From Raillietiella orientalis (taxonomy: Eukaryota), in NCBI GenBank assembly GCA_036172245.1, contig JAYWIR010000013.1:2418001-2482000 (forward strand): a DNA stretch of 64,000 nt, given 5' to 3'. A model generated the notes under the pieces. It searched no databases, was not told where the DNA came from, and worked only from the letters and a program-made list of their open reading frames with translations. Positions 9,743-64,000 of this stretch are shown piece after piece. The position numbers and the translations under genes are program-made. The stretch's first letter is position 1. Every line of letters begins with the position of its first letter.

Positions 9743-9749
9743 GAACAAA

Positions 9750-11253
<1,504 letters not shown>

Positions 11254-11265
11254 TTTTGGATTTTC

Positions 11266-14357: not shown

Positions 14358-14519
14358 AAAACAACCTTGAAACTGGCATGAGGTCATTCTGGTGAGCCTC
14401 CAAGAGACTAGTAAAAGGCTCAAGGTGAACCTGACCTTCTCCAAGTTGTGGGCTGCGGGACTCGGCAGCCCACTCGGAAAGGTTGCAGGTTCTTCGTCAT
14501 GTTCGATGAAGACGCCTGC

Positions 14520-26156: not shown

Positions 26157-26854
26157 TTTCACACGGATATGACGGGGCATTTATTATTAAAAGTTGAGAA
26201 ATAAAATTTTATAACAAAGTCTTCAAGTTCTTTCAGGCAGAACAGGTGGTTCCGCCTGTCTCGGAGCACTTGTCGTTACCGACCGGCAGACCGATGAGGT
26301 CCTTTCCGTTGGCGATGCAAGAGGGAAAACCTCAAAAATAAATAAATAAACAAAAACAAGAGGAGAGGGCAATGTTCTCCTGGGGGAAGTGGAAAAACAA
26401 GGGATCACTGCTCGTAGCGTGTGGTTTTCCGCATCCGGTTATGGATGCGGACAAGTACTGGTCGTAAAGTTCGTAACCGGCACCATAGGGAATCCTTACC
26501 CACTGACATAGCTGCTCAGTGAATGGCTCTTTGGATGTTACGGCCTATTATCGACTCAGTCCATTTGTCCAGGATTCCGAATATGAAGCAGAGAACTGCT
26601 ACACACGAGGCTGCTGGCAGGGCGTCCCTCATCAGGAGGCGACGGAAAGTGTTCTTCAGATCGCCAACCGGAATGTCAAGGATCGACGACAGTCGATTCC
26701 AAATTGTACGGAGGGCGACGCAGTCGATAAGCAGGTAGGAAAAGATTTTCATTTCCCCGCAGGCTGCACAATTGGCATCGACCCTCCCTAGTGTCCAGTG
26801 GGAGAGGCGTGCTCTGCAAAGGGTCCCCAATGCAACACAAGCAGCGCCTTCTCT
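26157..26854 (-). mobile_element. Tx1-like 3' fragment (host, left half)
   Basis: EKALLVLHWG...HWTLGRVDANCAACGEMKIFSYLLIDCVALRTIW, then a UTR and a decayed terminus aataaatgccccgtcatatccgtgtgaaaa. Confidence 0.8.
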
Positions 26855-27807
26855 GTGCGTGGGCTGATAGGACCTCCCTTGCCACGGCTCTGTTCCACCT
26901 CAGAGAGCACCTGGGCAGTAGCCAGCCGGCGAAATGGGAAGTCTGGTGCAGTATCTCTGGAAGAGAGAGAGAGCAAGGTGGTTGGACCACGGGCCAGTTG
27001 ACAGACGCTGCGACCCCAAGTGCCCCACCGAAAGGACTATTGCGCTAGGGCGAGCTGCTGAGCATCCCCATGGATGTACTCGAGTGGCCCCCGGTGCTGA
27101 AGACTACCCGGGCCCTCCACCTAAAGTGGCAGGAGTCGGCGTTCCTGGTGTTGCACTGGGGACTCTCCAGCAACGCCCGCCGTTCTCACTGGACGAGGGG
27201 GGCTGTGGACCCAAATTGCGTCAGATGCGGGGAACGAGAAACCCTCCCGCACCTGCTTCTTGACTGTGTTGCCATCCGGCCCCTATGGTTGCGTTTCGCA
27301 ACGGCCCTAGGAGCACCCACGATCAACCCTAGAGACGTTCTGACGCGCCTCTTTGTGCGTGACGCCCTTCCGCCTGCCGCAGCCCTTGCAGCCCTCTGCT
27401 GTCTACGAGGGATTGGGGCGGCCTGGAGCACCGCCACTGGTGGACTGAACGACAGGGACATCATCTGCTCCGCCCTGCGCTTCCTGAGGACGGCAGCCAG
27501 ATGGTCCCATTTGGGACGTATGCGGACTGAACTTGCCGGCATCCTGGAAAGGATGTAGAGGACGACCCCAGCGGAAAGTGATCCCTTCCCCAACCCCTCC
27601 TTGCTTTTGTAAATAGTGTTTTCTTTTTGTTTTTATTTGTCCTTTTCCCCCCCGCTGCCGAGTCGAACTCGCCAGACTGCATGCTGGCTACTCGGCAAAT
27701 TCAGATTCTTCATTAGAACATTTTTTAGGACGCTGTAGGGGCAATAGCCCTACACTTGCTTGTTTGTTTTTACTAAAAAATAAACGCCCCGGCGCACCCG
27801 GGTATAA
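26855..27807 (+). mobile_element. 5'-truncated Tx1-like insertion (about 950 bp) with a 16-bp target-site duplication
   Basis: ORF2 C-terminus (NARRSHWTRGAVDPNCVRCGERETLPHLLLDC...ELAGILERM*), UTR, and terminus aataaacgccccggcgcacccgggt. Flanks are aagcagcgccttctct (26839-26854) and aagcagcgccgtctct (27808-27823). Confidence 0.88.
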
Positions 27808-29523
27808 AAGCAGCGCCGTCTCTTGCCAATCCAAGGGAAGAGCGCTATTGTCTTATAACGCTCGGGGCCACTTCACCTCCTCCGGAGGCATGCCGAGCAG
27901 TTCGCCCCAGCACACAAGTCCTTTAGGCGGGACACTCCGGGTTGCAGCATCCGCTAGCCCCCGAGTCGCACACGCCTTTAACAGTCTATTCCTTCTTCCG
28001 ATGAAGCAGGACACTTTCCACGATGCCTCTTCCCACGCGGAGGATGCTGCTGGCTCCGATGCCGCTTTCGAGGTCTCGGCATCAGCAGCTTCTCTTTCGT
28101 TGCAGGCGACTGCTACGGTGCACGCAACCGCAGCTGAAGCTTTTTCGTGTGCCTTCTTTGGCGCACGGGGCTGCTTCTTCACTTCGCCTACCTTAATGAT
28201 GGGGAAGATGGAAGTTTCTCTTTTCTTCTTGTCCTTCTCCTTCCTCTGCCTCCCCCTCACTACAATCGAGCCAGGGTAGCAGTCCTCCGGATTGCCTCCG
28301 TTAAACGCGAAGGCCTCAAGGGCCCTTTTTTGCCCTCTCTAGGGGCCTCTGTTGCACGATCGCGGCCGGGTGTGGCCTCGTCATATATGCCTTTAGCGCC
28401 TCCTTACCGGAAGATGCAGGCCAAGTAGCGGAATTCTTCGGAATCGCGCGAGGCTTTGCAGCCTTTCCCGCGGCTTGGCTCGCCGTGGACGGGTTGCCTT
28501 TTGCGGTCTGAGAGGCGCGCGACCCCTAGATGGCGGCCCCGGTCGCTTTGCCGGGCGAACTACTGCCATTTCGATCCGGAGCAGCAAGGAGCGCGGACCG
28601 CGAGCTTAGCAGTGGGAAACTTTTCCCTCGCAGTGCAACGCGGCTTTTTGCTCTTCTGCGCGAGATTTCGTCTTGTTTTCATTTTTGAAACGCCCGCGCG
28701 ATCTTTTTCTAGCCTAGAATTTTAGGTGGAACGGCAGTCATGCCAGATTTCTCGCCCGACGACTGGATCGCAGTATTCAGCGCGTTCGGCGTAGATGCAG
28801 GAAGATTCTTCACCAGCCGTTTTCGCCTAAGCTCGGCACACTCATTGGTTGAGTGACCAAGCATTTTGCAGTAGCGGCAACTGCGAGTAGGGCACTCTCG
28901 CGGGAGAGGGTCCTCCTTGCCGCAGTTGCCGCAAGCCGGAGTTTGTCCGGCAAACCGAAGAAATACGACGGCGTCACCAAGGTGGATCTGCGAAGGCAGC
29001 AGCCTCCGGTTGTCCATGGTGACGCGCGTCCTTGGCGAGTCCGCAAGACAGGCGTGGAAGCTTCTTGACTGGGTTCACGCGCCTCCACAATGCATGCAAG
29101 GTGGCGAACGCCTCCAGTGCAAGAATCAGGTCGCGGTCGGCGATTCCCGGCCGAATGGCCCAGAGTTGGACCAAGAACGAATGGTCCAGGGCCGAGGGGA
29201 CGACTTCCTTACCCCTGATTTTCAGGGGCGTTCGGAACAGGTGCTGGACGAGGGATGCATCCTTGCAGTGCACCTCCCAATGTCCGAGCAAGCTTACTGG
29301 CATTAATGCCAGGAGGTCATCCTCGCGGACCCCGACGCGTTCCAGCTCGTTCCAGCCCGTTCCATCCGAGTACAGAGCAGAGCGTGGGCTTGTAGGCTTG
29401 GGCTACTTACGTTCGTAGCTGTGCTTCGCCGGGGCTGAGAGCCAAGCCTCTCAGTCCGGGCCGCCCACCCTGCAGGACCGGGAACACTCGGCCTCGTCCG
29501 CGATTCGACACATCCTGCGAGAA
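27808..29523 (-). mobile_element. Internally deleted Tx1-like element: 5' end and frameshifted ORF1 fused to a late-ORF2 piece
   Basis: ORF1 motifs YSDGTGWN...GHWEVHCKDASL...CGNCGKEDPLPREC..CRYCKMLGHSTNEC (28709-29420). Late-ORF2 piece WKVSCFIG...LADAATRSVPPKGLVCWGELL...WQETALL (27808-28030). Confidence 0.82.
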
Positions 29524-30164
29524 TTTTATTCCTCCCTTTGCGCCAGGGCGCCTCCCGAGCGAAACTCCTCGCGACTGCTGCTCCTGGACGGAGCCCCGGC
29601 AATAGGGGAGGAGGAAAAGGGAAGCCTAAACGAGCTTTTTACGACCGGTGAAATCATCACCGCGATAAAAAGGCTCAAGAGGCGGAAGGCGCCAGGGGAG
29701 GACGGCCTGCCCGCGGTGTTTTTTTAAAGCTTCGCGGCAGAGATGACCTCCTTGGGGCTTAGGTTGACACAGCTGATCCGGGAAGAAGGTGATGTTCCCG
29801 CCTCGTTCCGGTCAGCTAGGATGAGGTTCCTTCCTAAGAGAGGAGACCTCCGTAAGTTGAACAACTGGCGTCCGATCACGATGGTGAACACGGACGTCAA
29901 GTTGGTCGCAAAACTGTGGACTGCGCGGCTCGGACAGGTAGCCGAATCCGTAATTAGCCCGGAGCAGACTTACTCTGTTCCCGGGCGAAGTATGGAGGCT
30001 AACCTGCTCTTCGCCAGCACATGGTTTTATGGACAAGGCGAATTGAAAGAGCGGAAGGGATCTCTCGGCAACCTCAATGTAAGGGTGACCGCTGGTCAGG
30101 GTGGGGACAACCAAGCGGGCAAGGGTGCCCTAGAGATCGCAGTCGATCTCCATAAGGCGTTCGA
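29524..30164 (+). mobile_element. Tx1-like ORF2 fragment (linker to RT motif KAFD), interrupted at KAFD
   Basis: SSLCARAPP...KAPGEDGLP...LPKRGDLRKLNNWRPITMVNTDVKL...EQTYSVPGRS...IAVDLHKAFD. Confidence 0.9.
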
Positions 30165-30440
30165 TTTTCACCCGGATTCCGCCTGGGCGCTTATTGAAAC
30201 AATAAAATTTAACAAAGAAGTGCAGTGGCTGGATCATTGCTCCAGTCACGCACGAAGAAACACAGAGCCTGCCGGGTCACCGGTTCGCAGACCGGTACGG
30301 TCCACCACGGCAGCAGGAGGAAGGGGGAAAAAACAAAAAAACAAAACAAAAAGAAAAGAAAAAGTGGGAGGGTACGGGAAGGGATCACTGTAGCTGGTGG
30401 GGCCGTTGCATCCTTTGCAGGATGCCAGCAAGCTCTTGCT
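30165..30440 (-). mobile_element. Short 3' end of the KAFD-targeting Tx1-like family
   Basis: ELAGILQRMQRPHQLQ*, the family 3' UTR, and terminus ...ggaatccgggtgaaaa. Confidence 0.88.
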
Positions 30441-31190
30441 GCGCTAAAGGCCTTGCGAAGGCCGGCCGCGACCAGGGCACCTCCAACAGGTGACCATCAC
30501 CCGGATGCCGGAAGTGCGTCGTCCTCCGCGGAGGCGCCTCCGAAGAAGACTGGACGGAAGTCCAAGAATCCCAAGAGGCGCATCCCGACAAAAAAGGAGG
30601 GGGACGCACCGGCAGCCGAGGGGGAAACCGGTAGCGTGGGAACGGAGGGAGGGATTTTCCCACCCTCCGCAACCGAGCAGCTGGAGACCCCCATGGAGGA
30701 GGGGGAGAAGGTAAGTGATTGCCGCTTCCTTCCAACGGTGGGACCTGCTGAGGAGACAACCATGGAGGAGGGGGAGCAGACGGTTGACAACCGCTCCCCC
30801 CTGCCGTCCAGCGCAGCAAACGAATTGGCCCCCATGGAAGAGGGGGAGCAGGTGCGTGAGACCCGCCCCCTTCCACCGTTGCGGTCCGCCGAGGAATCGG
30901 CCCCCATGGAGGAGGGAGAACCGGTGCGCGGTGATCCCGTTCCTCCATCCGTCCCGCCCGACCAGGTGGCGGGAGCCCCACTGCCACTTTCCCAGGAATA
31001 ACACCTGGGCTCGCCTGTCGCCGTCGATTACGCGTGGCCTGCTGGAACGTGAACGGGCTGCGCGACGACGGCAACAGACGGGTCACGGCCGCCACCCTGC
31101 GTGACTTCGACCTGGCGCTCCTGCAGGAGATCCACGTGATCACTGCGGAGAACGCCCAGGAGATCGAGAGGATCACAGGGGGACGGTTGA
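30441..31190 (+). mobile_element. Tx1-like ORF1 C-terminus (PMEEGE repeats) and start of endonuclease
   Basis: Closely similar to the minus-strand copy at about 52745-53410. Reads ACWNVNGLRDDG...LLQEIH...GGRL and is then cut. Confidence 0.88.
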
Positions 31191-33660
31191 TTATCACCCG
31201 GTTGCGCCGGGGCGTTTATTAAAAACCATCCGGGAACAGAATTCCTGGACAAAGGGAAAAACAACAGACGAAGGGGGTGGGATCCCCGACACGCAGGTCC
31301 GTATGCCGAAAGTCCGGAACGGGAGGGAGGGGACCACAAATACACTACTATAAAAAATAAAAATAAAAATATGGTGGGCAGGGGACAGGGGTCTTTGGTG
31401 AGTCCGTTCCTTCCTTTCAAAGCCGGCGATGGATGCCGGCGATCTCTCTCCTTACGTCCTGTGGCAGATGAGCCCACTCGGCAGCCGACGACATGCTCGC
31501 GCTGGCTAATCCGGTGGGCTGAGAAGGATGGCCAGCTTCTCCAACTCTCGGTGGGCCTTGTCGATGGCGCGGGTGCAACAGACCGTTGCGATGACAGCAC
31601 CTAAAGACAGGCAGCCTGGCGTGAAGAAGCGGCGCATCAAATCCCTCGCGGCGTCCCCCTGGTGCAGGAGAGCTGAGGCCAGCCTCCGCCAAAGTCCTTG
31701 GAGGGCACTGCAGTCCAAAAGCAGGTGCGGGAGCGTTTCCACTTCCCCGCACCGCTTACACTTTGGGGAGACACTCCCCCGGAAACACGGTTCGTGCGCT
31801 GGTTGGAGTGAAAACCCCAATGCACCAGCATGATGACTTCGTGCTTCCACGAAAGGGGGAACACAGAAGTGTTCAAACAGGAGGGAGGGACCACAAGTTC
31901 TTCGGGGGGCACACTCAAGTGTTCACTCCACCAAAGGTGTCCCTTCGAGATGTGGCGAGGCGTGGCGGCGTCTGCCAGCTCGCAAGTCCTCCAGCCGCCA
32001 ATAGGTCGTGTTGTTCCTGCAATGGTGCAGGCGACCTCCCATCTCGCCGGTTCGCAGCTGTCATCTCTTGCCCTGAGGGCTGACAGTGCGTCGGCGAGGG
32101 GGGTGAGGGCCAGGCGGGTCCACTTCCCCTGGCTGTTGCACACTTCATCCACCATGCAGTACGGTAGAAGGTGAGCGCAACGGAGTTCCAGGAGGAAGAC
32201 ATCCTGGTGCTTTGCCCAGCCATGCAAGGGTTCCTGCCGCCAGGATTGAAAGTTCGTTGGGCGGCAGGAGATCCATTCCTGGGCTGCCAGGAGCCAGTAG
32301 AGCGGTTTCAAAGGGAAACCGAAACTTGTCGTGGGGCGCTCCGTATGTGGACGCAGCGACAGAAGTCCGTCGCTGCCGGTGCAGCGCCGCAGGAGCAGGC
32401 GCGCAAGAGCGCACCACGGAGTGGACCAAAGGTTGGCGCACAGGGCCAACATCCGAAGCTGCACCTGCAGCTCGATTCTCTCCAGCGTCAGGATGCCTAA
32501 GCCAGCATCCCGACGCGGAGCCGCCAAGTCTTTGAGGCGGATCCTGGAACTCGCAGGTCCCCACAAAGCGTTCCTCAACAGGCTGTGCGCCTGGAGCTTG
32601 GCCGAGTAGGGGGGTGGGCAAACAGAAAGCTGGGGGCGCAAGAGGGGGGCAACGAAGGTGTTCCATATCGCGGCCCGCTCCGACAGGAGGAAGCTGCCGT
32701 GGAGGAACGGGCTCAGCGCACTCGTAGACTTCCGAAGGCAGTCCAACCACACTTCCACTGGGCTGATATTCCCCAGCGGAATGCCCAGATATTGGATGAA
32801 CGAAGCGGTCGGGATCCCCAGGCGGTTCCAGTCGGACTGCCCCTCCCACGCCGCACCAATGGGTACGACCACGCTCTTGCTCCGGTTTACGCTCATGCCC
32901 GCTCCCCGGCGAATCAGTTCGAAGAAATGCTCGAGACTGGACGCCGGGGTGGTCATGGGTAAAAGGAGAAGCAGGTCGTCAGAATAGGCCGCCACGGACG
33001 GCGTTCCTGGACAAAAGCTCGGCAGGTTGGACAGCGTCAGCTTGTACGCCCTCAGCACCAACTCAAAGAAGATGCTGAAGAGAAGGGGGCTTAAGCTGTC
33101 TCCCTGCCGGATACCCTGCCGTATGGGAATGCCGTACACGTGGCGCCCGCTGAAAGAGATACAGCATAACGCGTGGCGCCAGCAGGAGCGCAAGTAGGCG
33201 ATGAGGTGCTTCGGGAGGCCTAGGCGTCCCAGAAGCTCCAGAAGGAGGTCCTGGTTTACGCTGTCGAACGCTTTGCAGAGATCGACGGCGACCGCTAAGG
33301 CTCCCGGCGTTGCATGGTGCCTTGAACACCGCCGCTTACCTTTGGAAGCAACGATTTCGGCTGCCTGGCTCTGCTACGCCACGCGCTGCTGCAACTCGAA
33401 CCATGTTCGCGCGAAGAAGAGATTCGCGTCCATGGACCGCCCGGAACAGCATACGTCTGCTCCGGACTTACCAAGGACTCCGTGAGTCTCCCCAGTCGCG
33501 CGACCCATAGCTTGGAGAACAACTTGACGTCCGAATTTACCAAGGTGATGGGACGCCTGTTGCTGGGGTGACGCAAATCACCGCCTTTCGGCAGGATCCG
33601 CACCTTTGCTGAGCGGAAAGAAGCGGGAACATCTCCCGTCTCACGCATCAGCGGCGGTCG
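31191..33660 (-). mobile_element. 5'-truncated Tx1-like element (RT to 3' end), frameshifted
   Basis: RPITLVNSDVKLFSK, VDLCKAFDSVNQ, GIRQGDSLSPLLF, AAYSDDLLL, YLGIP, CKRCGEVETLPHLLLDC, and terminus aataaacgccccggcgcaaccgggtg. Confidence 0.92.
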
Positions 33661-35279
33661 CGTACGGACGTGCTTTTGCGTCGCTCCGCTGTAGATTGGC
33701 TCTTGTGTGTTTTTGTTCTGCTGTGCTTCTGTGCTGCAATGGGAGCAAAGAAGAACATCAGCCGCAAGAAGGGAACGCCACCTGCTCCTGAGATGGCTGC
33801 TTCGGCTGCTAGCAAGGAGCCTCTGTCCTCGCCGACGGCGAGGACATTCGCCCAGGTCGCTGCCCTCGCGGCTACGATGGGACCTTCGCCCGACAGCCCT
33901 GAGCTTCAGGCGTATGTAGCAAATGGCTACACGCCTGCACTCAGCTATAAGGTAAGTGTCCTTATGCCTGAGCGGGTTGGGCGCGAGTTTGGCCAGGAAC
34001 TCCAACGGATTGGAGTTCAAAAAGGCCAACTGGAGTCCATCATGCCCATGAGTGGGTGCGGCTACTGGGAGGTGTCCAGTAAGGACGCTCTCCTTACGCA
34101 GCGTTTGCTGCACACGCCGCTGCTCATTCGTGGGCAGGAAATACTCCCTGTCACAACGGACCAGTCGTTCGTTGTCCGGCTCAGTGGAGTGTGTAAGGGC
34201 CTTTCGGACCTCCAGGTCGTGGAGGCCCTTGAAAAATTTGCTACCGTCCACGCGCTTTGGAGGCTGCCAAACCCTGCTGAAGGGTTCGAAGACCACCACA
34301 GCGGGCTCGCGCAAGTGCGAGTGACGATGAAGGATCGCCGTTCAATGCCCACGCGACTGCAGGTGGATGGAATGACCGTCCGCCTGTGATTTGCCGGGCA
34401 AACGCGTGTATGCGCGGAATGCGGGCAGAAGGGTCTCCGCATTACGAAGTGTCCCTCGGCCGCTTGTCGTTACTGCCACGACCACGGGCACACTAAAGGA
34501 ACGTGCCCGGAGCTCCTTTCAAAAAACGAAAAGCGCAGGAACGAATCGCGTTCCGCATTGCGGAATAATCGCAGCGAATCGAGAGAAAGAAACATCAAAG
34601 CTCCGAAAAGCGTTGCGAAAACTGCGACCACGCACGTGCAGAAAACTGTTTCTCGCCCCCACAAAGAAGGGGTGAAAAACACAAAAAAACTCGTCGCGGC
34701 AAAGCCTCCGGCTATCGACCCGAAGGAAGCTCGCGAAGAATGCGACCTTTCTACGAGACCTCGCAGCCAATTGTTGAATGCAGGAGACATTGTGCCGAAG
34801 GTCAAAGAGCCTCGTACTGTCGGCATCACGACCGCGAAGCCTCGTACCAAGGCCTCGACGAGCGGCGCGGAATGCGGTCGTTCGCCCGATACGGGAAAAA
34901 CGCGCCCGCGGGCAAAGAACACCGCGCCGTCTGAAGCTACCGCGGCCAAGGTGCCCCAGGCACCGAGTGCCGCGAGGAAACAGCCGGCAAACCAGTAGTC
35001 CTCGCGCGCGGACGCAGCGCCTACTGCGGCCAAGGAAGAAACTGCTAGGGCGAGCACAACCGCTACAGCAGTGCCCCCAACGGTCGCAAAGGCAACGCGC
35101 GAACCCTCCGATCTGGAAGAGGCAGCGCCTCTCGCGATCGCTAAGTTTCCCCAAGTCCCACAAGGGGTGGGGTAAGTTTATTTTTCTATAAAAATACAAT
35201 ATTTACATTCGCACTCTCATTCACTCAATACAAGCATTTTGCACTTGGGGGTCCTTGGGTTGCACTAGAGTTCTGCTTT

Positions 35280-38796: not shown

Positions 38797-38809
38797 AAAA
38801 GGGGAAGAC

Positions 38810-45432: not shown

Positions 45433-45678
45433 CTGCAAACGGCCTCACCAGCAACTGTGATCCCTTCCCGTACCCTCCCAGTTTTTTCCTTTCTTTTTGT
45501 TTTGTTTTTTGTTTTTCCCCCTTTCCCTTGCTGGGGTGGTGGACCGTACCGGTCTGCGAACCGGTGACCCGGCAGGCTCTGTGTTTCTTCTTGCTTGGCT
45601 GGAGCGATGGTCCAGTCACTGCACGTCTTTGTAAATGTTTATTCAACAATAAACGCCCCGGCGAAATCCGGGTGAAAA
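45433..45678 (+). mobile_element. Very short (about 250 bp) 3' end of the KAFD-targeting family
   Basis: The same 3' UTR and terminus as 43223-43440, abutting tcgaacg (KAFD motif of a minus-strand host). Confidence 0.88.
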
Positions 45679-52131: not shown

Positions 52132-55017
52132 AGCGAGATTCCGGAGGGTGACGCCTCTCAGGAATTGGCGGTGTTCTTTCGCACCTGAGAGTCGCGTCCA
52201 GTCTCCAGGCAGCCGCCAGGCCCTGGAAAGGGGATCCTTGTCGCGCGCGCATACCTCGATAATTAGCCGGGAATGGTCCGACAGCGTCGACGCAACTCTC
52301 CCCCGATTGCCGACCCGTGGACACAGGTCAGCATCCAGGAAAAAATGGTCGAAGCCTTTGGCCATTCCCGGGAGATCCCCCAACAAGTTGCGCGTGCGCA
52401 TGGCAACGCACAACTCGTTGGCCGTCCGCTCCTGTGCGTGAACATCATCTGAGAGCAGGCTCAGGTTGAAATCGCCAGCAATCAGGTAAGCCCTGCGCAC
52501 GTTCGCTTCCACCAGCCAGTCGCGCTTCAGGGTTTCCAGAAACGCCGCACGTTCCTGGTACCTGGCAGGACCGCTCGGGGCGTACACGTTGGTTACGACG
52601 AGGTCAATAGCGTCGGACCACCTGAGAATCAGCTGGCCGACACGACCGGCTTCGTCGAAGCGCACGCCCTTCACGGCTGCGTCGACTGCCGGCTTCATAA
52701 AAAACGCGACGCCGCAGGTGTATCGGGTGCCGCATTGCCACATCAGCCGTCCCCCTGCGATCCTTTCGATCTCCTGGGCGTTCTCCGCGGTGATCACGTG
52801 GATCTCCTGCAGGAGTGCCAGATCGAAGTCACGCAGGGTGGCGGCCGTGTCCCGTCTGTTGCTGTCGTCGCGCAGCCCGTTCACGTTCCAGCAGGCCACG
52901 CGTAATCGACGGCGACAGGCGAGCCCAGGTGTTACTCCTGGGAAAGTGGCAATGGGGCGCCCGCCACCTGGTCGGGCGGGACGGATGGAGGAACGGGATC
53001 ACCGCGCACCGGTTCTCCCTCCTCCATGGGGGCCGATTCGTCGGCTGCGTTGGACGGCAGGGGGGAGCGGTTGTCAGCTGTCTGCTCCGCCTCCTCCATG
53101 GCTATCTCTTGGACAGGTTCCACCGTTGGGAGGGGGCGGCAATCACTCACTTTATCCCCCTCCTCCATGGGGGTCTCCGGTTGCTCGGTAGCGGAGGGTG
53201 GGAAAATCCCTCCCTCCGTTCCCACGCTGCCGGCTTCCCCCTCGGATGCCGGTGCGTCCCCCTCCTTCTTTGTCGGGATGCGCCTCTTGGGATTCTTGGA
53301 CTTCCGTCCAGTCTTCTTCGGAGGAGCCTCCGCGGAGGAGGACGCACTTCCGTCATCCGGGTCGTGGTCACCTGTCGGAGGTGCCTTGCCTGCGGCCGGC
53401 CTTCAGAAGGCCTTTCGCGCGCCGTTCTCACGCTCCGCGAGTTCGGCCGCGAGCTCTTCTGCCGCCTGTTGGAAGGCGTCGTCGTCGATTGCGGCGAGTG
53501 CGTCGCTCGGCTCCCCCTCTGTTTGCACAGAGGGTTCGCCTTCCGAGGTCGCGACTTCGTCGTCAACGAGGCGAGGGATATCTCCCCCTGTGGCGGTCTC
53601 GGGGACCTCCACACGCTCCAAAGCGACCGAACATTCGCGGAGCAACGCGCGGCGTTGTCTCCTATTTAAAGGAGATGTCGCGGGTTCCGCTGTCGGATCT
53701 TCGGTCTTCTTGCTCTTTTTACATTTAGGCTTCGCCTTATGCCAGCCCTCGCTCTCTCCAGTGTCGTTAAGAGTATCCTCGACCGGCGCTTGCTGCACGG
53801 GTTCGGGTTCTGGCTGTGGGTTCCGCCTCTCGGGTGCCTCCTTGGGCTTGTCCGGTGGCCCCGCGCGTTTCCCTTTGGCTTTTTTCAAAGCAGGGGGAGC
53901 CGGGGTTTCGCGTTTAGGACACACCTTCCGCAGGTGGCCCTTTTCGCCGCAGTGGAAACACTGGATGTGGGGCATCGTATTTTGACGTGCCCTGTTGCAT
54001 CACAGTGTCCACAGTACTTGGGCTTATCCACGTACCAGACGTCGACGACCTCGTTGCCGACGTCTAGTTTGTGGGGCAGCCCATTGTTTTCCTTGACGGT
54101 CACACGCGCTGCGGCCATGCCACTGAACAGTCTTCCGTAACTTTGGAAGATGTTCGGCTTGGTCCATACCGCGTGTACCGTACCGTATTTGCTTAATTCC
54201 TTCTTCACGCCGGCTTTTGACATGCGGAGGAATACTCCCGTAAGATGCGCTACCACAGAGCGATCCTCGGTTACAGGGAAGACCTTTCTGCCTTCCAGCA
54301 TGAGAGGGGTATTCAGCAGGCGTTGAGCCAGGCTTGCATCTCTGAAAGTAAGCTCCACCCGCTGGCCCCCACTGAGCACTGAAAGGCCTTCCAGTTCCTC
54401 CTCTTTTACTTCTAACAGCTGCAATTCCCTCTCGAAATTGCGGGCGTTGTTTCCAACGAACAGGTTTCCTACCTTGTAAATCAAGGACGGCTTGTATCCT
54501 TGTTCCAGGTAGGCCCGCAGTTCTGCTAAGGCTGCAGGAGATGGCGCTGCAGCCACGGAGCTCCAGGTCTTCGTGGATGGAGCAGACGGATCCAAGGACG
54601 CGGTTGCCCCCTTTTTCAAGGGGGCGGTTGCGGCCTTTTGCACGAGAGGGGTTGCTCCCTTTTCCAAGGAGGCGGCAGCACTCGTTTCCGGAGGGGCGGT
54701 TGCCCCCTTTTCCAAGGGGGCGGTTGCGGCCTTTTGCACGAGAGGGGTTGCTCCCTTTTTCAAGGAGGCGGCAGCACTCGTTTCCGGAGGGGCGGTTGCC
54801 CCCTTTTCCAAGGGGGCGGTTGCCCTCTTCTCCGTGGAAGCGGTTGCCCCCACCTCTGTGGGTTGGGGAGAGGAACCATCCTCTCCCCCGCCAACTTCCA
54901 TCGCGGTGAACTCAGGCATTCCTGCCATGGGACACCGGCGATGCACCACGCACTAACACACTAAAAAAGGCTTCGAAAACTCTCACGGCAGGAGCACAGA
55001 AAAAACACGACCGCACG
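52132..55017 (-). mobile_element. Tx1-like 5' half: 5' UTR, frameshifted ORF1, endonuclease up to TLRNLA
   Basis: 5' motif at 54991-55012; CGHCDATGHVKIRC and CFHCGEKGHLRKVC; ACWNVNG, LQEIH, NVYAP, GDFN, FDH, SDH. Confidence 0.92.
54600..54850 (-). repeat. In-frame 96-bp higher-order repeat (4 x 24-bp subunits) in the ORF1 N-terminus
   Basis: The unit restarts at 54600, 54696 and 54792 and encodes KGATAPPETSAAASLEKGATPLVQKAATAPLE-like repeats. Confidence 0.88.
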
Positions 55018-55656
55018 CTCCCTTTACGCCAGGGCGCCCCCGCATCAAGACGCCTCTCGGCGCTTGCTTCCGGTTGGTGCTTCGGCAATAAAGGAGGAGG
55101 AGAAGTTAAGCCTCGACGAGCCTTTTACCACCGGCGAAATTCTCGCCTGTATCAAAAGGCTCAAGAGGCGTAAAGCTCCAGGGGAAGACGGCTTGCCTGC
55201 AGAGTTCTTTCAGAGCTTGGCTTAAGATCTGGAACCCCTGCTGCTCCAGTTGATAAGGCTGATCCGAGACGAAGGCGATGTTCCCGCCTCTTGTCGGTCA
55301 GCCAGAGTGAGGCTCCTTCCGAAAGGGGGAGACCTCAGGGATCTGACCTCAGAGAACTGGCGTCCGATCACGATCGTGAATACGGACGCCAAGTTATTAG
55401 CAGGGCTATGGGCTTCGCGTCTGGGGCAGGTGGCAGAATCCGTAATTAGCCCGGAGCAGACTTATGCTGTTCCCGGGCGAAGTATGGATGCCAACCTCTT
55501 CTTCGCAAGCACATGGATGCACCTGCAGAGATGGGAAAAGAAAGGAAGGAAGAAAATCGGCAACCCCACATTGGGGCCGCCAGCCGGGCAGGGAAGGGAC
55601 ACCCGGGCGGGGAAGGGGACCCTAGCTCTCGCAGTCGATCTCCACAAGGCGTTCGA
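55018..55656 (+). mobile_element. Tx1-like ORF2 fragment (SLYARAPP to KAFD), interrupted at KAFD
   Basis: SLYARAPP...KAPGEDGLPAEF...LPKGGDLRD...WRPITIVNTDAKL...LAVDLHKAFD. Confidence 0.9.
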
Positions 55657-56072
55657 TTTTCACCCGGATTTCGCCGGGGCGTTTATTGTTCAATAAACAT
55701 TTGCAAAGACGTGCAGTGGCTGGACCATTGCTACAGCCACGCACGAAGAAACACAGATCCTGCCGGGTCACCGGTTCGCGGACCGGTACGGTCTACCACG
55801 GCAGCAGGGGGAAGGAAGAAAAACAAAAAACAAAACAAAAAAAGAAAAGAAAAGGTGGGAGGGTGCGGGAAGGGATCACTGTAGCTGTTGGGGCCGTTGC
55901 ATCCTTTGCAGGATGTCGGCAAGCTCCTTCTGTATTGCTGGATCCAGGTGGGGCCATCTCGACGCTCTCCTCAGGAACTGGGAGGTTGGCTGGATGCTAC
56001 CCTGGTCGCGTCGTCCTGGTTAGCCTTGCTCCAGGCGGTGACGATCGCGCGTAGGCAGCAGAAACCTGCTAA
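55657..56072 (-). mobile_element. 3' end of the KAFD-targeting family
   Basis: Family UTR and terminus; joined head-to-head to the next copy through an acg overlap at about 56072. Confidence 0.88.
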
Positions 56073-57560
56073 CGTTCGCGGCTCCTCTCCTCCGCCCCTG
56101 CTTTTTGTTTGCCCCCCCACAGAGAGAATTAAAAAGCGGACAAAGGACCTCCACCGTATCGCCCTTTGGGGCAACGGGAGGGCCCGAGTCCGCTTAAAGG
56201 ACTTGTGCGCTCCTCGTCGGGACGGTGGTGTGAGCCTCCTGACGCTGGAGCGGCTGGAGCTTCAGCTCCAGTTCCGATTGTCGGCACTCGTTCCAGAGTT
56301 GTGGTGCAAGTGTTGGTGCGTCCCTGCACGTCTCCTTCTCCAGCAAGCCACCGGCAAGACGGGACTGACGTCGTTTCTTGCACTCCGTCGCCGCCTCAAC
56401 CGATGCGGACTCCAGCTACGGAGGGTGGCTGCGTTGTACCGGAAAAACCCAGGATTGGTCACCTGTCGCCCTTTGAACGGTAGTGCCTGGTTGCAGGAAA
56501 CCGTTCGAACGTGGGGAAAGTTCGGCATGCAACGCTCTCAACAGGAACGAAGGTTCCTGTTTGGGGGTTACAGAAGTTGCACGCTCCGCGAGATCCTGGA
56601 GGATCCAAAGAAGAGAGCATGGGCAGGAAGAACTCCCCTCGCTGCTGCGCTGCCCTCCCTGATGGAAGATCTGGACAGCGATGTTGCGGCCAAGTGGGAG
56701 GTTTCAGTTACAATCTCCGGAAAGGAGAAGAAGATAGGAGAGTGGAAGACGGGCCAGTTAACAGACGCTGCGTCCCCGAGTACGCCTCTCAATGGACTTC
56801 TGCGTTGAGGCGCGCTGCTCGATGTTCCCATTGAACATCTGAAGTGACCCTCGGTGCTCATGAACACTTCCGCCCTCCCCTTAAAATGGCGGGAGTCGGC
56901 TCTCCTGTTGCAGCACTGGGGACTCCCCTGCAGCGCCCGCCGACACCACTGGACCTGGGGAGCGGTGGACCCCAATTGCGTCAGGTGTGGGGAACGGGAG
57001 TCCCTCCCCCACCTGCTAGTGGATTGTGTTGCCCTTGGGCCCCTTTGGTTCCGCTTTGCCGCGGCCATCGGAATCCCCTGAGGCAACTGAGGGACGTACT
57101 GAAAGCCCTCTTCGTTTCCGACGCCCTTCGGCCAGCGGCCTCGTTAGCAGCTTTGTGCTGTCTACGCGGGATCGTCACCGCTTGGAGCAAGGCTACGGGA
57201 GGACAACGCGACCAGGGTGCCATCCAGCCAGCCTCCCAGTTCCTGAGGAGAGCGTCCCGATGGTTCCACCTGGATCCAGGAATACAGAAGGAGCTTGCCG
57301 GCATCCTGCAAAGGATGCAACGGCCCCACCAGCAACTGTGATCCCTTCCCTTACCCTCCCAGTTTTTTCTTTTCTTTTTTGTTTTGGTTTTTGTTTTTCC
57401 CCTTCCCCCTGCTGCCGTGGTGGACCGTACCGGTCTGCGAACCGGTGACCCGGCAGGCTCTGTGTTTCTTCGTGCGTGGCTTGAGCAATGGTCCAGCCAC
57501 TGCACGTCTTTGTAAATGTTTATTGTTGCAATAAACGCTCCGGCGAATTCCGGGTGAAAA
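56072..57560 (+). mobile_element. 5'-truncated copy of the KAFD-targeting family
   Basis: Nearly identical (inverted) to 43223-44710. The terminus ...gaattccgggtgaaaa abuts tcgaacgccttg. Confidence 0.92.
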
Positions 57561-60003
57561 TCGAACGCCTTGTGAAGATCGACCGCGACCGCCAAGGCAC
57601 CTGGCGTTCCCTCCTTGCGTCGGCGCCTGTTATTCTTGCCTGCGGCTGTGACTTTCGCAGCAGCCTGGCTTTGCTGCGCAACGACTTCCTGCAGCTGCAT
57701 CCATGTACGCGCGAAAACGATGTTCGCCTCCATGGATCGCCCCGGAACCGCGTAGGTTTGTTCCGGGCTCACCACAGATTCCGCGATACTTCCTAACCGC
57801 GCGACCCACAGCTTCGAAAACAACTTGACGTCCGAGTTCACCAAGGTGATCGGACGTCAGTTGTTAAGTTGGCGCAAGTCTCCTCCTTTCGGCAGGAGAC
57901 GCACCTTCGCTGAGCGGAAGGAATCCGGGACATTCCCGGATTCACTCATAAGCGTCGCGAGTCTTAGCATCAAGGGAATGAGCTCCACTGCAAAGCACTG
58001 ATAAAACTCTGCAGGGAGCTCATCCTTGCCTGGCTCCCTTCGTCTCTTCAGCCCAGTGATGGCGGACGAAAATTCGTCCGCCGTGAAGGGCTCGTTGAGA
58101 CGTTCGCGTTCCTCCTCGCCGACAACACGAGCATCCTGAGACAGGAGTATCTCAGAGAGAATATCCTCCGTCGGGGATTCCGCGTACAGCAAGAAGTAGT
58201 AGCGTCTCACATTGCGGCGTACTTCGGCTGGGAATTCCCGGCATTACTGCTGGGAAGATTAAGATGTGGGGGAGCCCTCCTCTTGCGAGGCGGGCGGGAT
58301 GTCCATGGGGGTTTCGGCCTTCTCAGGCACCTGAGGCACCTGTTCGGCCTCCACCCCCTCGATCCTTTCCGTGTCCGCGCGTGGGAGTCTCTCGGGCGAC
58401 GGGTCCCGAGAGTTTCCCACGCTCATGGCACCCTCGCTTGCTTAAGCCATCTCTTCCCCTTCGACGGGGGAGACGAGCTTCCTTGGCTTTGTGGACTTAC
58501 GTCCAGCCTTCTTGCGCGGTGCTGTGGAAACGGAGGCCGCTCTTCCGGCCTCCACCTCGGGGTCGGAAGTGGGGGACTCCTGAGGGGAGGCCGGACGCCT
58601 TACGGCCTTCTTGCCAGTTTTGGAGGGTTCTGGCTGCAACGAGGCTGCCAGCTCCTCCGCGGCTTGCGCGAAGGCTACGTCATCGATGGTAGTGTCGATG
58701 ACGGACGCCGCCGCGGGCTCGCTCCCCTCGCTGTTGACAGAGTCAACAGAGAGGTGGTCGACGGTAGGGGCGAGTTCTTTTTCGCAGTGGTCGGGAATAC
58801 GCTCGACGACAACGCTGCATTCTATAATTTGCTCGCTTGCCTGCTGTTTTTTCTGGCGGTACGCGAGCTTTTTCTCCATCCTTCTCTCCTTCTTTGATTT
58901 TTTGGCTGTAGCCACCTGCCACCCAGGCTCCTGGCTAGTTCCCTCGACTTGTTCGGCGTTGTTCGCCGAGGTCTCGGGTGCGGCCTCGGTCTTGGGCGCG
59001 GCTGGCACAGCTTTCTACGCAGCTTTCTCCGCCAGCCTTTTCTGCAGAAGCCGGGCAGGTTTTTTATGGAATCTCTTGGAAACCACCCACACTGCTTCTT
59101 TAGGGCACACCTCCCTCGTGTGTCCCATGGTTCCGCATACTTGGCACTGCACATTGGGACACCTCTTTTTGAGGTGGCCCGACGTATTGATGAATGCACA
59201 GTATTTCGGCTTCCCCACATACCAGAGGTCGACGGTTTCGCCTTCGACCACCAGTTTGTGGAGAAGAGTGCAGCCCTCCCGAACGGTCACGCGCGCAGCA
59301 GTGACGCCGTGTTGCAGCCCCGTGTAATCCACGAAAGGATTAACTTTCGTCCACTGCGCGTGGACCGTTCCGTATTCCTCCAACGCGGCCCGAACCTGTT
59401 CCTTGCGCATCCGCGCGGTAACACCTAACAGGTGGACCATTATGCTGCGGTCCGCCGTAATAGGGAGGAGCCTGCGCGTCCTAATCACCACAGGGGTTTT
59501 AAGCAGTCGTTGGGCCAGCTCTGCTTGTTTGCAGATGACCTCAAAGTACTGACCCCCGCTTCGGATGGTCATAGCGCTGAGCTCCTCCTCTTTCACATCG
59601 AGAGCGCGCATGCCCTTCGATAAGGCGCGCGCGCTCTCTAAAGAATATAGATTGCCTACCTTGTAGAACAATGAGGGGTTGTACCCCTTTTCTACATAAG
59701 CCGACAATTCCGCCGCGGCTGCAGGCGATGGCGCCGACACAACGGCGCTCCACGCCCGCGATGCAGCGGGGACCGATTCTGTGGAGGAGGATGCCCCCAC
59801 CTCCATCGCCTCTGAGGGCGACGTTACCGCCGCCCCCAGGCTCTGCATCGCCTCTGGGGGCGGCGTTACCGCTGCCCATTGGCATCCCTGGTGGTCGAGT
59901 CAGGCATCGCTGCCTGATCGACCACCGAACCACACGACGCTTGCACTGGGGGAGACTTCCTGGCACGAGGAGCACCGAGAAAACACTTCCACCCTGGAGC
60001 ACG
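57561..60003 (-). mobile_element. Tx1-like 5' part: 5' UTR, frameshifted ORF1, endonuclease deleted, RT N-terminus to KAFD
   Basis: 5' motif at 59969-59990; ORF1 59848-58244 (CQVCGTMGHTREVC); TAATG at 58242-58246; jump to YFLLYAESP...LPKGGDLRQLNN*RPITLVNSDVK...AVDLHKAFD. Confidence 0.9.
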
Positions 60004-60072
60004 CAAGGCGTTCGACTGCGTAAATCAGGATCTTTTGCTGGAGCTCCTGGAACGCCTCGGTCTCCCGTTGCA
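60004..60072 (+). mobile_element. Downstream half of an RT KAFD target (KAFDCVNQDLLLELLERLGLP)
   Basis: caaggcgttcgactgcgtaaatcaggat; the first 12 bp equal 55645-55656. Confidence 0.85.
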
Positions 60073-61276
60073 CTTCGTGGATAGGGAGTTTTTCTTTCCT
60101 GGTGTTCCGTGTGTGTTTCGCGGCCGTTGACAGGCAGAAATGCCTGTGAACGCCGCAGTTTCAGGTGAGGGAGGCGGGAAGACCGCGTCTAACAAGCCAA
60201 AGGAGGTAGGATCACGCCCCACCACTTCTTCTGAACCCGCCACTACGGCGAGGGCCTGGAGCGCGGTGGCAGCGGCGGAAACGCCCGATGTCGCCGCCGA
60301 AATTTAATCCTACATCCAGGAGGGCTACAATCCGGCCCTCCTGTACAAGGTAGGCAATTTATATTCCCCGTTAAGGGCGCGAAAGTTCGGCAATGCCATC
60401 AAAAAAATGGGCATTGCCGACCATGAAATTCTTCGCCTCTCTATACGGAGCGGAGGGCAGTTGGCGGAGCTCATCTGCAAGGATGCAGCTCTTACACACA
60501 AGATGCTCTGCGCGCCCGTACAATTTGATGGCAGGAATTTACTCCCACACACTGTGGACCACTTCATTGTGGTCCACCTAACAGGGACAACAGTGCGGAT
60601 GGATGAGAACGCCATCCGCGCTGAACTCGAAAAATTCGCTAGCGTTTTCGCGATGTGGAGAAAGCCCAACACCTTCGGAGAGAACGGTGCATTCATTGGG
60701 CGAGTAGGCGCGCGCGTGACGCTTCGAGAAAGCGTACAGCTTCCCCACAAGCTTCAAATTGGCGACGAGTTCGTCGACATTTGGTTTGTGGGGAAACCTA
60801 AATTTTGTGGAAACTGTAAGTCGTTCGGGCATTTGAAAAAGCGGTGCCCGGACGCAGTTTGCCCAACGTGCGGCGCAAAGGGCCACACCAAAGTGGTGTG
60901 CCCGATGAACGTCGCACCAACGCCGGAACTTCCGCAAAAGAAGGAAGGGAAGGCAAAAATAGTGATAAACCCCACAAAAGGGGATCAGCCGTCGGCTCCG
61001 ACAAAAGTCGCGCAGCAGGAAAGGGACTCGGTACAGGAGCTCCCGGAAAAGACTGCCGACGAGGAAGGCTGGCAGCTGGTCACCCGTAAAGTAAAAATTG
61101 TTAAAAAAACCGCGCCCGCACCGGCGAAAGTGGTCAAGGGCAAGGGGAAGGTCGCGCCACGCCCAACAATCGAAGCGTGCAGCGTGGTCATCAAACGCGT
61201 GCCGGCGATCGATACTCGCTCCGCTGACGGATCGATGCGTTGTGACGTCACGCCAGCTGTTCAACCCGCCGCCTGA
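60073..61276 (+). mobile_element. Tx1-like 5' fragment (ORF1)
   Basis: AWSAVAA...GYNPALLYKVG...CGNCKSFGHLKKRC..CPTCGAKGHTKVVC; one internal stop at about 60305. Confidence 0.88.
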
Positions 61277-62793
61277 GAGGGTGGACGTGCTTTTGTGGTG
61301 CTCCGCGTTTTTCTCGCGAGTGTTTTCGGTGTTTTCAGCTGTGAGCGGTTGTTCCTGGGCAGAGATGCCCGAGGACGCCGCAAAGACGGCGGAGGGGGGC
61401 GAGCGAGCCTCGTCCCCCCAGCCCATGGATGTGGGGGCCATCTCCCCCACGGAATCGTCCCCCGCCCCGGCGAGGGCTTGGAGCGCGGTGGTGGCGGCGC
61501 CTGCGCCGCCCCCCGCAGAGGAACAGCGGGCCTATATGGCCGACGGCTACAACCCGGCCCTACTTTACAAGGTAGGTGGCCTGTACTCCCCCGCGGTGTT
61601 ACGATCGTTCGCCGCGGAGTTTAAAAAGTTGAAAGTCCCGGAGGACGAAGTCCTCGGGCTTTCGGTTAGGAGTGGCGGGCAGCTGGTTGAGCTGAACTGC
61701 AAATCTGCAGGGTTGGCTCAGCAGCTGCTCCGCCTGCCGGTGACCGTGAACGGGAGAAGGATCTTCCCGTTCACGGCGGACAACTCCATCGTGGTGCATT
61801 TGACCGGCATAACGATGCGCATGGCAAAGTGCGCCGTGCGAGAATCGTTAGAGAAGTTCGGGACCGTTCACGCGTTGTGGGCAAAACCCAATGTCCTGGG
61901 TTACACCAGGGCATTTAGTGGTTACGCCGCTGCGCGCGTGACGATACGTGCCGAGGGTGGGCTACCCCACAGACTGCAGGTCGGGGAGGAGGAGATCGAC
62001 CTGTGGTATGTGGGGAAACCCGTATACTGCGGCTTTTGCCAGGTGTCGGGGCATTTAAAAAAGAAATGCCCCAACATCGTGTGCTTGGGCTGTGGGGAGA
62101 AGGGGCACATCAGGCGGATGTGCCCCAACCGAAAAGGTCCGTTCCGTCAGGCGCGAGGAAGGAAGAGACGCCGAAGGAAAAGGACCGAAGCCAACAACTG
62201 GCAGAATCCCGCCCTGCCGACCAACCCGCTACTCAGGCATCCACCAGCGAACAACCAGCTGGAGAAAGCGCCGAGAACGAGGAAGGTTGGCAGGTGAAAA
62301 GGGGAAGAAGCCCCCAGAAGAAGGGAGGCAAAGAAGACCGTGGGCGGGCCAGAAGAACCGATGTGGCTGACGAGGACCCGACGCGTCACCGTGCCGGGCA
62401 AGAGCAACGGTGATCGTGCGTCGATTCTGGTCGTCGTCGCCACTGGTGATCACCGTGGTGACATTGTGTTCGCCATTGCCAGAAGGACGTCTGCGCGCCG
62501 ATCGATGAAGCCGCCCCTGTCGCGCCTGCGCAAAGCGTCGGTGCGGAAAGCGAGGAGGCGGCGCGCATAACGGACGCGACCTTCGCGCAGGCCGCGGAAG
62601 AGCTGGCAACCATGTTACGGCAGTCTGCCAAGGCCGAGAAGAAGGCCTTGAGACGACCGGCAACGGTGAAGGGCCCGGAAAATTCCGAGTCCGAAACCGA
62701 AGCCGGTCATTCTCACAACCGTGCCGAAGAGGAAGGCTGGCAAGAAGACCGGTTGCCCGAGACAACCACGTTTACTCGTCAAGGGCTTCGGCG
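61277..62793 (+). mobile_element. Tx1-like 5' fragment (5' UTR + ORF1)
   Basis: 5' motif at 61283; MPEDAAK...GYNPALLYKVGG...CGFCQVSGHLKKKC..CLGCGEKGHIRRMC; frameshift at about 62135. Confidence 0.9.
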
Positions 62794-63800
62794 TTGCCAC
62801 CCGGGTACGCCCGGAACGTTTATTTATAAAAAACTCTACAATCGCGGTACCAGGCTCCGCTCACGGCCTTATGCACGGGACCTACCGGGACGCCGGGACG
62901 CAGCCCGGCGTGGCACTCCCCGGCAGCGAAAGGGGATGGGGAAAAACAAAAATAAAAACAAAAACGCAAACAAACAAATGAGGTTGGAGGGCAGGGAAGG
63001 GATCACTGTTCGCTGAGAGGACGGCCCATCCGTTGAAGGAAGCCCTCTAGGTCCATCCGCATATTCCCCAGTTGGGGCCATCCAGCAGCTCTTCGCAAGA
63101 AGCGTTGGGCATACGGGATGACATCCCTCGCTTGTGGAGCCACTCCTTCGTTTTTGGCGTCGCTCCATGCCGCCACGATGCCACGGAGTCAGCACAAGGC
63201 TGCGATGGCTGCGGCTGGCTGCAGTGTGTCCTTCACGCAGATGGTCCAAAGAACGTCTCTGGGGCTGCTGCCTGTAGGGAGCCAGAGGGTCCTCCCGAAC
63301 CGTTTTCAAAGGGGTCGGAGGGCAGCACAATCCACAATAAGGTGGGGAAGCGACTCCCGCTCCCCGCACCTGGCACACGCAGGATCCACAGCTCCCCTCG
63401 TCCAGTGGAAGCGGCGCGCGTTGCAGGGTAGATCCCAGTGCAACAAAAGCAACGCCGACTCTTGCCACTTGAGGGGGAGGATTCTGGATTCCTTCATCAC
63501 CGGGGGCCACTTCAGCTCATCCCTGGGGATGGCGAGCAGCTCGCCATATCTTAATAATCCTCGCGGCTGGACGCTCGGGGTCGTGGCGTCGGCCAGTTCT
63601 ACTGTTGTCCAGCCGCTGATCAACTTCTCGCGTTCCTCGATGCAGCAGGAGACTTGCCACCTTGGCGTCCGGCTGCTGTGAAGTGCCTTCCTCAGGAAGG
63701 GCAGCGCCGTAGCTAGGCAGGTCGTCTCTACCCACGTGCATCTTGCTGGTCTCTCCAGGAGATTCCGCAGCGTGCAGCGGGCCTAGGGGCTGCATCTAAG
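62794..63800 (-). mobile_element. 5'-truncated Tx1-like 3' fragment
   Basis: WQESALLLLHWDLPCNARRFHWTRGAVDPACARCGERESLPHLIVDC; terminus aataaacgttccgggcgtacccgggtg. Confidence 0.9.
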
Positions 63801-64000
63801 ACGATTTTACGTTTCGATGGTCCTCTGGTTAACCGCTGCCTACGTTCCAATATTCTCCTCCACCCAGGCGGGGGAGTCAGGAACGAGCGGGCATACCTTC
63901 AGGCCCGCCGTTATTCCAGGCGTCCCGACGTCCGTTGCCTGGCAGAATTCAAGGCTGAGGCGGAGAGGCAAGCCTGGCAGTCAGGCTCGGCCTTCTTGCT
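63800..64000 (+). mobile_element. Tx1-like ORF2 linker fragment running off the window
   Basis: RNERAYLQARRYSRRPDVRCLAEFKAEAERQAWQSGSAFLL matches the linkers at about 42420 and 49220. Confidence 0.85.

Follow-up and report, generated by a model that had tools for sequence, protein, structure and literature searches.

In a 64,000-nucleotide stretch of the Raillietiella orientalis genome (contig JAYWIR010000013.1, positions 2,418,001 to 2,482,000; hereafter the window), the block from 26.2 kb to the window end is a nested cluster of long interspersed nuclear elements (LINEs) whose ten listed 3′ junctions all lie antisense to the adjoining LINE, and one family, K, was inserted five times at a single nucleotide of the reverse transcriptase (RT) codons of other copies. 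The arrangement is probably the product of an L1/Tx1-like clade of LINEs without poly(A) tails, whose members would nick relatives at particular motifs in the coding strand and so fix the antisense orientation. Overall, the cluster looks like a pile-up of dead copies from one LINE clade, oriented by site-specific targeting and not by a host-built trap. The block is GC-rich (0.55–0.62), and all recognisable coding pieces in it belong to one kind of LINE, with an open reading frame 1 (ORF1) encoding zf-CCHC knuckles and an ORF2 encoding an APE-type endonuclease (EN; Pfam Exo_endo_phos, 1.3e-17), an RT (RVT_1, 4.6e-30) and a C-terminal domain; ORF1, EN and RT together are the domain set of an APE-type LINE. 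Unless given as window-wide or as lying outside it, orientation counts refer to this one 38-kb cluster (26.2 kb to the window end at 64 kb), which runs past the window.

The cluster was mapped by tblastn and blastn with two elements of full or near full length as rulers, R on the minus strand (35146–40680) and E on the plus strand (46603–52131). A reading of the sequence alone had listed ten LINE 3′ ends, each abutting a LINE in the opposite orientation. All ten exist, at most 1 nt from where they had been placed (27807+, 30166−, 31192−, 35146−, 43224−, 45678+, 52131+, 55658−, 57560+ and 62795−), and in the tblastn maps and by blastn all ten adjoin LINE coding sequence on the opposite strand. 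The proposed minimum of five types of 3′ untranslated region (UTR) rose to six on our count (K, E, S1, W, X2 and R), and the more than 20 strand alternations became 21 switches at the 24 LINE–LINE boundaries between 25 annotated segments. Six target positions had been named and six were found. The labels were correct for the KAFD codons of RT (30165, 43223, 45678, 55657 and 57560), for TLRNLA (52131), for early EN (..ITGGRL, 31191) and for the end of ORF1 (35145 and 62794, the host call at 62794 being the weakest, with tblastn E 0.001 and blastn 5e-4). The label ETALL at 27807 was partly right, in that the xxALL motif of the C-terminal domain is there but this host reads EKALL. Motif and similarity scans with all UTR types returned these ten ends plus one at 26158 (−) and a degenerate one at ~14356 (+). 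The former, an eleventh 3′ end, opens the cluster and adjoins DNA without detectable LINE similarity.

The general 3′ end consists of AATAAA, then a 5-bp GC hairpin (CCCGG-loop-CCGGG) and a tail of 4–6 nt, without poly(A). The hairpin arms are swapped in X2 (CCGGG..CCCGG) and different in R (CCCCA..TGGGG). As a thermodynamic signal the hairpin was rejected: its position is conserved and its energy statistically unexceptional, with a minimum free energy of −8.2 to −13.2 kcal/mol and z of only −0.4 to −1.6 against shuffles. RNAalifold gave 13 pairs, four of them with double changes, and a weak covariation term (−0.51).

Family K carries the argument. Its five 3′ ends (30166, 43224, 45678, 55658 and 57560) all lie at the same KAFD nucleotide, after ..GC(G/A)TTCGA on the host coding strand; independent copies at one nucleotide and in one orientation are the mark of a site-specific LINE, and K shows this in 5/5 cases. 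The five 3′ UTRs are 84.9–94.5% identical, whereas the 600 nt of host before the junctions, at only 57.7–83.4% identity, represent two RT lineages, {X, H2, P, E} and {A, Q, W}. Because the host flanks are far more diverged than the inserted UTRs, the junctions are separate insertions. Insert lengths differ as well (241, 276, 418+ and 1,485 bp, and full length). A single composite junction copied by segmental duplication was considered and rejected: high-scoring pairs do span the junctions (42586–44711 against 56072–58200), but the hosts are far more diverged. An origin of P1, the first piece of host P, as a 620-bp target-site duplication (TSD) copy of A was ruled out at 60.6% identity.

The five K copies are nested as follows. 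K1 (30166–30441, −), a 276-bp 3′ fragment, lies antisense to X (29428–30165, +), an RT fragment that stops exactly at the KAFD codons (..AAGGCGTTCGA T). H2, a full-length K element on the minus strand (43224–45437, 45679–46602 and 52132–55018), has its 3′ end antisense to host A at KAFD and is itself split by C and E; C (45438–45678, +), a 241-bp K 3′ fragment, sits antisense at the KAFD site of H2. QQ′ (55658–56075 and 57561–60004, −), with a K 3′ UTR and a full-length 5′ end, lies antisense at the KAFD site of P (55019–55657 and 60005–~60084, +), a host RT fragment that it splits. S (56076–57560, +), a 1.5-kb K 3′ part with 94.5% amino acid identity to H2, is in turn antisense to QQ′ at its KAFD. 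Since H2 and QQ′ carry K-type UTRs and were hit, K also targets its own family. Of the eight elements in the cluster with a KAFD site, five have been hit there (X, A, H2, P and QQ′), and the sites of E (50019), W (33263–33274) and R are free. Chance cannot account for five hits at one nucleotide and on the same strand of an element of 5.5 kb, and antisense targeting of relatives by K is well supported.

K-type 3′ ends read ..CCGGGTGAAAA. Two of the K insertions have a TSD, and in both of them TTCGAT stands next to the 3′ junction while the second copy has GAC and lacks the last T; this puts the nick after TTCGA and makes the final A part of the K tail (..GTGAAAA).

TSDs, consistent with target-primed reverse transcription (TPRT), prove five of the ten insertions. 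They measure 16 bp with one mismatch around S1 in H1 (26839–26854/27808–27823), 14 identical bp (CTCGCGATCGCTAA) around R and its fused U4 small nuclear RNA (snRNA) in A (35131–35144/40819–40832), 18 bp with two mismatches around E in H2 (46585–46602/52132–52149) and 11 identical bp (AAGGCGTTCGA) around QQ′ in P (55646–55656/60005–60015). The fifth, around C in H2, is a direct repeat of ~122 bp, 87% identical (45316–45437/45679–45799), unusually long beside the 11–18 bp of the other insertions. We then excised insertions in silico, removing each together with one TSD copy, and read the host frame over the join. The frame was open in three of four tests: for 445 codons in H2 across E (..GV followed at the join by TLRNLADWDLFK..), for 167 codons in P across QQ′ (..AVDLHKAF followed by DCVNQDLLLELL..) and for 167 codons in A across R and U4. 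In the fourth, H1 across S1, only 7 codons lay ahead of the join. A fifth reading, of H2 across C at the repeat boundary, had 0 codons ahead of the join and is not counted among the four.

In TPRT, the nicked target strand primes synthesis of complementary DNA (cDNA) on the element RNA, and the new copy is antisense to the nicked strand. Newcomers would have entered older copies by this route, each at a set sequence motif: a nick in the coding strand of the resident would leave a 3′-OH that primes the cDNA, and the newcomer would lie antisense because it is, in every case here, the coding strand of the host LINE that is nicked. The K nick is placed after ...GC(G/A)TTCGA in the KAFD codons, which encode a core RT motif conserved in the clade even at the DNA level, and this conservation would explain why K hits at least two RT lineages plus its own family. 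The W nick would follow ...CGGTTGA in the ITGGRL codons of EN, and four further families are represented by a single event apiece, at another motif. Orientation is fixed at insertion and not by later selection, because never-expressible fragments of 241 and 276 bp and insertions with perfect TSDs obey the rule. Guidance by the invader RNA, through homology or through an R-loop that exposes the coding strand, was disfavoured: E entered H2 at TLRNLADWDLF but does not itself conserve this target, its own sequence being KMQTLQDWDRF. An element-encoded endonuclease may supply the specificity; according to PMC4494074, which cites Takahashi and Fujiwara 2002, the endonuclease mainly sets target choice in site-specific LINEs.

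Family W offers a second case. W (31192–33656, −) is a LINE with its own 3′-UTR type (tail GTGATAA), 5′-truncated in RT, and its 3′ end is joined antisense after ..GGACGGTTGA, the ITGGRL codons of EN, in Z (30442–31191, +). Z runs from the end of ORF1 to early EN, is ~90% identical to the matching part of H2 and stops at this point. In a public run of DNA assembled as short contigs (run X1), one contig has a hairpin end with tail GATAA lying antisense at W's EN position in another host copy, which equals Z at 16 of 26 flanking letters in a by-eye comparison. One window copy and one contig thus give some support for site specificity in W too. A second contig joins a hairpin-type end to the antisense of a Q-like ORF1 (58806), a weak and thin joint subject to ascertainment, and a third bridges 46569 to 52145 with a single E TSD region, an empty site in another copy (weak, at depth 2 with 27 letters on the shorter side). 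The run contains 0.14 of the sampled words and represents mostly other copies (15/237 at ≥99%); window parts without coverage in it carry no information.

The families behind S1, E, R and X2 may be site-specific as well. Taken further, the pattern allows a broader and more tentative picture, possible but not one we would lean on, in which a guild of LINE lineages are mutual hyperparasites, each EN homing to its own conserved LINE coding motif and always on the coding strand. The motifs would be KAFD of RT for K and an EN motif for W, while the remaining lineages would use the EN–RT linker, the C-terminal domain or the end of ORF1. If such a guild existed, an antisense invader would inactivate the resident, kin included, and self-growing LINE-only islands would be seeded; a conserved RT motif would be a 'safe haven' lasting as long as LINEs do, and inverted nesting a built-in source of double-stranded RNA.

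Several observations weigh against reading the cluster as site-specific targeting by a whole clade. With one event each, S1, E, R and X2 are unproven as site-specific elements. No clear motif is common to the nick sites of all six families, so that the rule 'always the coding strand' is without a mechanistic explanation. Even for K an unused GCGTTCGAT lies at 41773 in the EN of A, which means that the 9-mer alone is insufficient. For K1, W, H2, S and X2, half of the insertions, a TSD was not found and the adjacent host does not resume: the complete 5′ end of H2 adjoins the 5′-truncated start of P (55018/55019), the truncated 5′ end of W adjoins the complete 5′ end of A (33656/33657), and ~1.7 kb of host is missing where S lies within QQ′. 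The absent host halves would reflect insertion-associated deletions or later rearrangement, and the history of the cluster needs such additional events. The joints from the public run are thin overall (depth 2–4.3, 25–27 letters on the shorter side), the W-like contig included (depth 4.3, 25 letters). 'Tx1-like' is moreover a label and not a result, membership of that clade being putative; in protein searches for relatives of the RT, the best were ≤31% identical, most were unnamed and none was labelled Tx1.

Exceptions to the orientation rule belong with these points. Two pairs of same-strand neighbours, the only ones inside the cluster and both at 5′ ends, occur at ~60085 (P2/Y1) and ~61265 (Y1/Y2). 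They may be chimeras from template switching at the 5′ end, or else sense insertions with 3′ ends past the window. A further case lies outside the cluster: 14 nt on from the degenerate 3′ end at ~14356 (+) there is a weak plus-strand RT match to the NWRPI..L region (14371; tblastn E 0.095) and, beyond that, a second plus-strand match to a KAFD-like region near 14745 (E 0.003), which makes this a probable same-orientation junction. Counting it, 10 of 11 3′ junctions are antisense window-wide. Together, the two 5′ adjacencies and the ~14356 junction suggest that the antisense rule is not absolute.

These exceptions bear on the statistics. The sequence-only reading gave a probability of about 0.001 for ten antisense junctions arising by chance, a value that holds if the ten events are independent but fails here, since five of them are one family at one site. 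Because of that, the events reduce to ~6 independent choices of orientation (2^-6 = 0.016, one-sided), or to ~5 (p ~0.03) if common descent explains the similar nicks of K (after TTCGA) and W (after TTGA). The non-K families contribute only ~5 independent trials. Counting the three possible same-strand cases (Y1, Y2 and ~14356) as sense leaves 6/9 antisense, which is unremarkable. The same numbers, with the nick sites that share no motif, favour the view that only K, and perhaps W, is site-specific and that antisense orientation in the other four or five families is a small-sample coincidence. We regard this as unlikely, given that none of the ten 3′ junctions in the cluster is clearly sense-oriented and that the thin contig end at 58806 is antisense as well. 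The earlier proposal of clade-wide antisense targeting accordingly stands strongly for K and to some degree for W, but for the other four families it draws on one event each, within ~5–6 independent trials in all. One lesson of method is that orientation counts in nested repeats should first be collapsed by family and target site.

The sequence-only reading had also suggested that the host selects for antisense nesting, as in a small-RNA 'transposon trap' where such insertions are retained for their double-stranded or small RNAs and sense insertions are purged. Inverted nesting would indeed yield hairpin transcripts if the locus were transcribed, and the cluster is dense and continues past the window. 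We nevertheless found the proposal unsupported and consider it very unlikely. One transposable-element clade only was recognised in 38 kb, and the strands are balanced (17.2 kb of LINE bases on the plus strand against 19.7 kb on the minus strand), where uni-strand clusters of the flamenco type are expected to show strand bias. Selection leaves junctions at an identical nucleotide unexplained; the 241- and 276-bp fragments follow the rule, and insertions with near-perfect TSDs (R with U4, 14/14; QQ′, 11/11) are already antisense. The CpG observed/expected ratio, 0.95 in the cluster against 0.60 in neighbouring genes, gives no sign of long-term germline methylation.

A filter acting after insertion, by which sense copies, as direct repeats with their host, are lost through recombination or deletion, would fit the missing host halves at five of ten insertions and the age of the elements (TSD copies up to 13% diverged). 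It is highly improbable all the same: the families, at 58–78% DNA identity, offer little for homologous recombination to act on, insertions that are young also lie antisense, and such a filter cannot make five junctions at one nucleotide. Mis-joined repeat copies, although repeats 70–95% identical are difficult to assemble, are hardly credible as the source of the alternation, because TSDs at five insertions and hosts that resume in register with frames open for up to 445 codons are not expected products of mis-assembly, nor do nucleotide-precise junctions recurring in diverged contexts fit that account.

The remaining segments complete the map. H1 (26158–26854 and 27808–~28026, −) opens the cluster with its own degenerate K-like 3′ end (..CCGTGTGAAAA) at 26158 and is split by S1 (26855–27807, +), a 5′-truncated LINE of 953 bp lying antisense at the EKALL codons; the two H1 pieces meet across S1 at E-coordinates 51473 and 51481. 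An ORF1 fragment, O1, follows at 28838–29333 (−). Host A (33657–35144 and 40819–43223, +) has a full-length 5′ end, reaches as far as KAFD, the point at which H2 adjoins it, and is split in late ORF1 by R and U4; its portion after KAFD was not found in the cluster. E, the 5,529-bp full-length LINE, has its own 3′-UTR type (tail TTTCA) and lies antisense in H2 at TLRNLA. QQ′ lacks ~1.7 kb downstream of its own KAFD and also the whole EN region (E-coordinates 48274–49371, with only 66 nt between the matches); for the missing EN, a later deletion or mobilisation in trans of an RNA already without EN may be responsible. Towards the window end, Y1 (~60085–61264, +) and Y2 (~61265–62794, +) are both ORF1-bearing 5′ parts, share their strand with P2, the second piece of P, and have 3′ ends past the window. 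X2 (62795–63788, −), a 5′-truncated LINE with its own 3′-UTR type and tail TGGCA, is antisense to Y2 near the end of ORF1.

R is the most divergent type in the cluster, with an ORF1 of 619 amino acids carrying CCHC knuckles and with EN, RT and C-terminal pieces in three frames. The N-terminal part of its ORF1 (40297–40469) contains 27/54-bp tandem repeats coding for a repeated Ala/Pro-rich motif. A complete U4 snRNA copy (40681–40818, −; Rfam RF00015, 93.9 bits, positions 1–138 of 138) is fused to the R 5′ end in the same orientation, with a single TSD around the pair, as in snRNA–LINE chimeras. The pair may be a one-off chimera from template switching or else belong to a family of LINEs headed by U4, and a single copy fits both; the fusion suggests that this RT can switch templates at the 5′ end of an RNA.

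Full-length copies of several families have a common 5′-terminal motif, GCGT.CGG.CGTG[TC]TTTT..GCTCC (33657, 46603, 55018, 60004 and ~61265), which marks complete 5′ ends and may be part of an internal promoter. The 5′ UTR of H2 contains a tandem array (54591–54861) of 24/48/96-bp units in up to 10.9 copies, which may be a promoter repeat.

Around the cluster, the genic part of the window is AT-rich (GC 0.32–0.40) and includes a SUN-domain exon (8084–8530, −) and an RPS18 exon (10527–10943, −), the latter 85–92% identical to arthropod RPS18. Composition differs strongly between positions 4001–12000 (GC ~0.40, CpG observed/expected 0.60) and 26158–64000 (GC 0.585, 0.95); these ratios suggest past methylation of the genes but not of the LINE island. 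Plus-strand LINE remnants, old and degenerate, occupy positions 13600–17100, outside the cluster. GC content is very high (0.69) over the first 2,600 positions, where both strands carry long open frames, of up to 490 amino acids, without a Pfam match.

Many of the best database proteins carry PF03372, PF00078 and PF13966. A peptide across the K junction, in which ..AVDLHKAFD continues into the translation of the antisense K end, was compared with 1.84 billion representatives and the junction was not found; two matches were multi-repeat proteins of 1,700 and 1,895 amino acids with 11–13 matching stretches. Scans for the 3′-end motif gave one match in metagenome contigs, within a bacterial coding region and taken as chance, and none in viral contigs. 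Full-text literature, of which coverage was incomplete, so that this is weak evidence of absence, held no report of a LINE targeting the RT codons of a LINE.

Site-specific LINEs are valued as targeted-insertion tools and as models of the part that endonuclease and RNA play in determining integration; the targets known for them are multigene families of the host, microsatellites and a small number of DNA or long terminal repeat (LTR) transposons. A LINE family aimed at KAFD of RT, with sister families at other motifs, would, if true, be a clear case of transposon-on-transposon parasitism; it would explain LINE-only islands without a host 'trap' and offer a natural experiment in the diversification of target specificity inside a single clade. 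The R1 and R2 LINEs of ribosomal DNA are likewise nucleotide-precise and orientation-fixed in a conserved multicopy target, with a 3′-UTR structure and not poly(A) marking the template. Their target is a host gene, whereas here it is another LINE, and R2 uses a restriction-like endonuclease. The cluster resembles PIWI-interacting RNA clusters and traps in its dense nesting of dead elements but consists of one clade with site-specific junctions and no net strand bias; neither many unrelated families nor one prevailing orientation was found.

Closer parallels come from LINEs that enter other transposons. According to PMC8226300, which cites Higashiyama et al. 1997, Zepp L1 elements of green algae target their own copies by nested insertion and form dense clusters of mostly 5′-truncated copies. 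On that description, Zepp builds tandem arrays of 3′ ends in the same orientation, whereas nesting here is antisense (10/10 junctions, with strand switches at 21 of 24 boundaries), at exact codons and without poly(A). As described in PMC4494074, many Tx1-clade LINEs have sequence targets that include other transposons, with fixed sites and orientations: Tx1L lies in the piggyBac-type Tx1D, Tx1-8_Crp in LTR elements and others in Harbinger, Keno is found in U2 genes, and Tx1-Mar occupies two positions in Mariner-N4_AMi, each with a fixed direction, the one at about position 240 being opposite. Further Tx1 targets given there are snRNA and 5S genes, satellites and microsatellites, and some families carry heads derived from U1 or U2 (PMC4494074), to which R with its U4 would correspond. 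The same source cites Garcia-Perez et al. 2007 for chimeric snRNA/L1 retrocopies made by template switching; R shares with these a complete snRNA at the LINE 5′ end in the same orientation within one TSD, and differs in that the snRNA is U4 and not U6, U1 or U2. Like the target-specific Tx1 LINEs so described, the elements studied here have an APE-type endonuclease and enter a multicopy target with both position and orientation fixed; unlike them, they have as target the coding sequence of a LINE of the same clade, at KAFD of RT and with their own family included. By this comparison the system would work in the manner of Tx1-type site-specific LINEs, and what appears new is the target: LINE coding motifs, the family's own among them, entered antisense.

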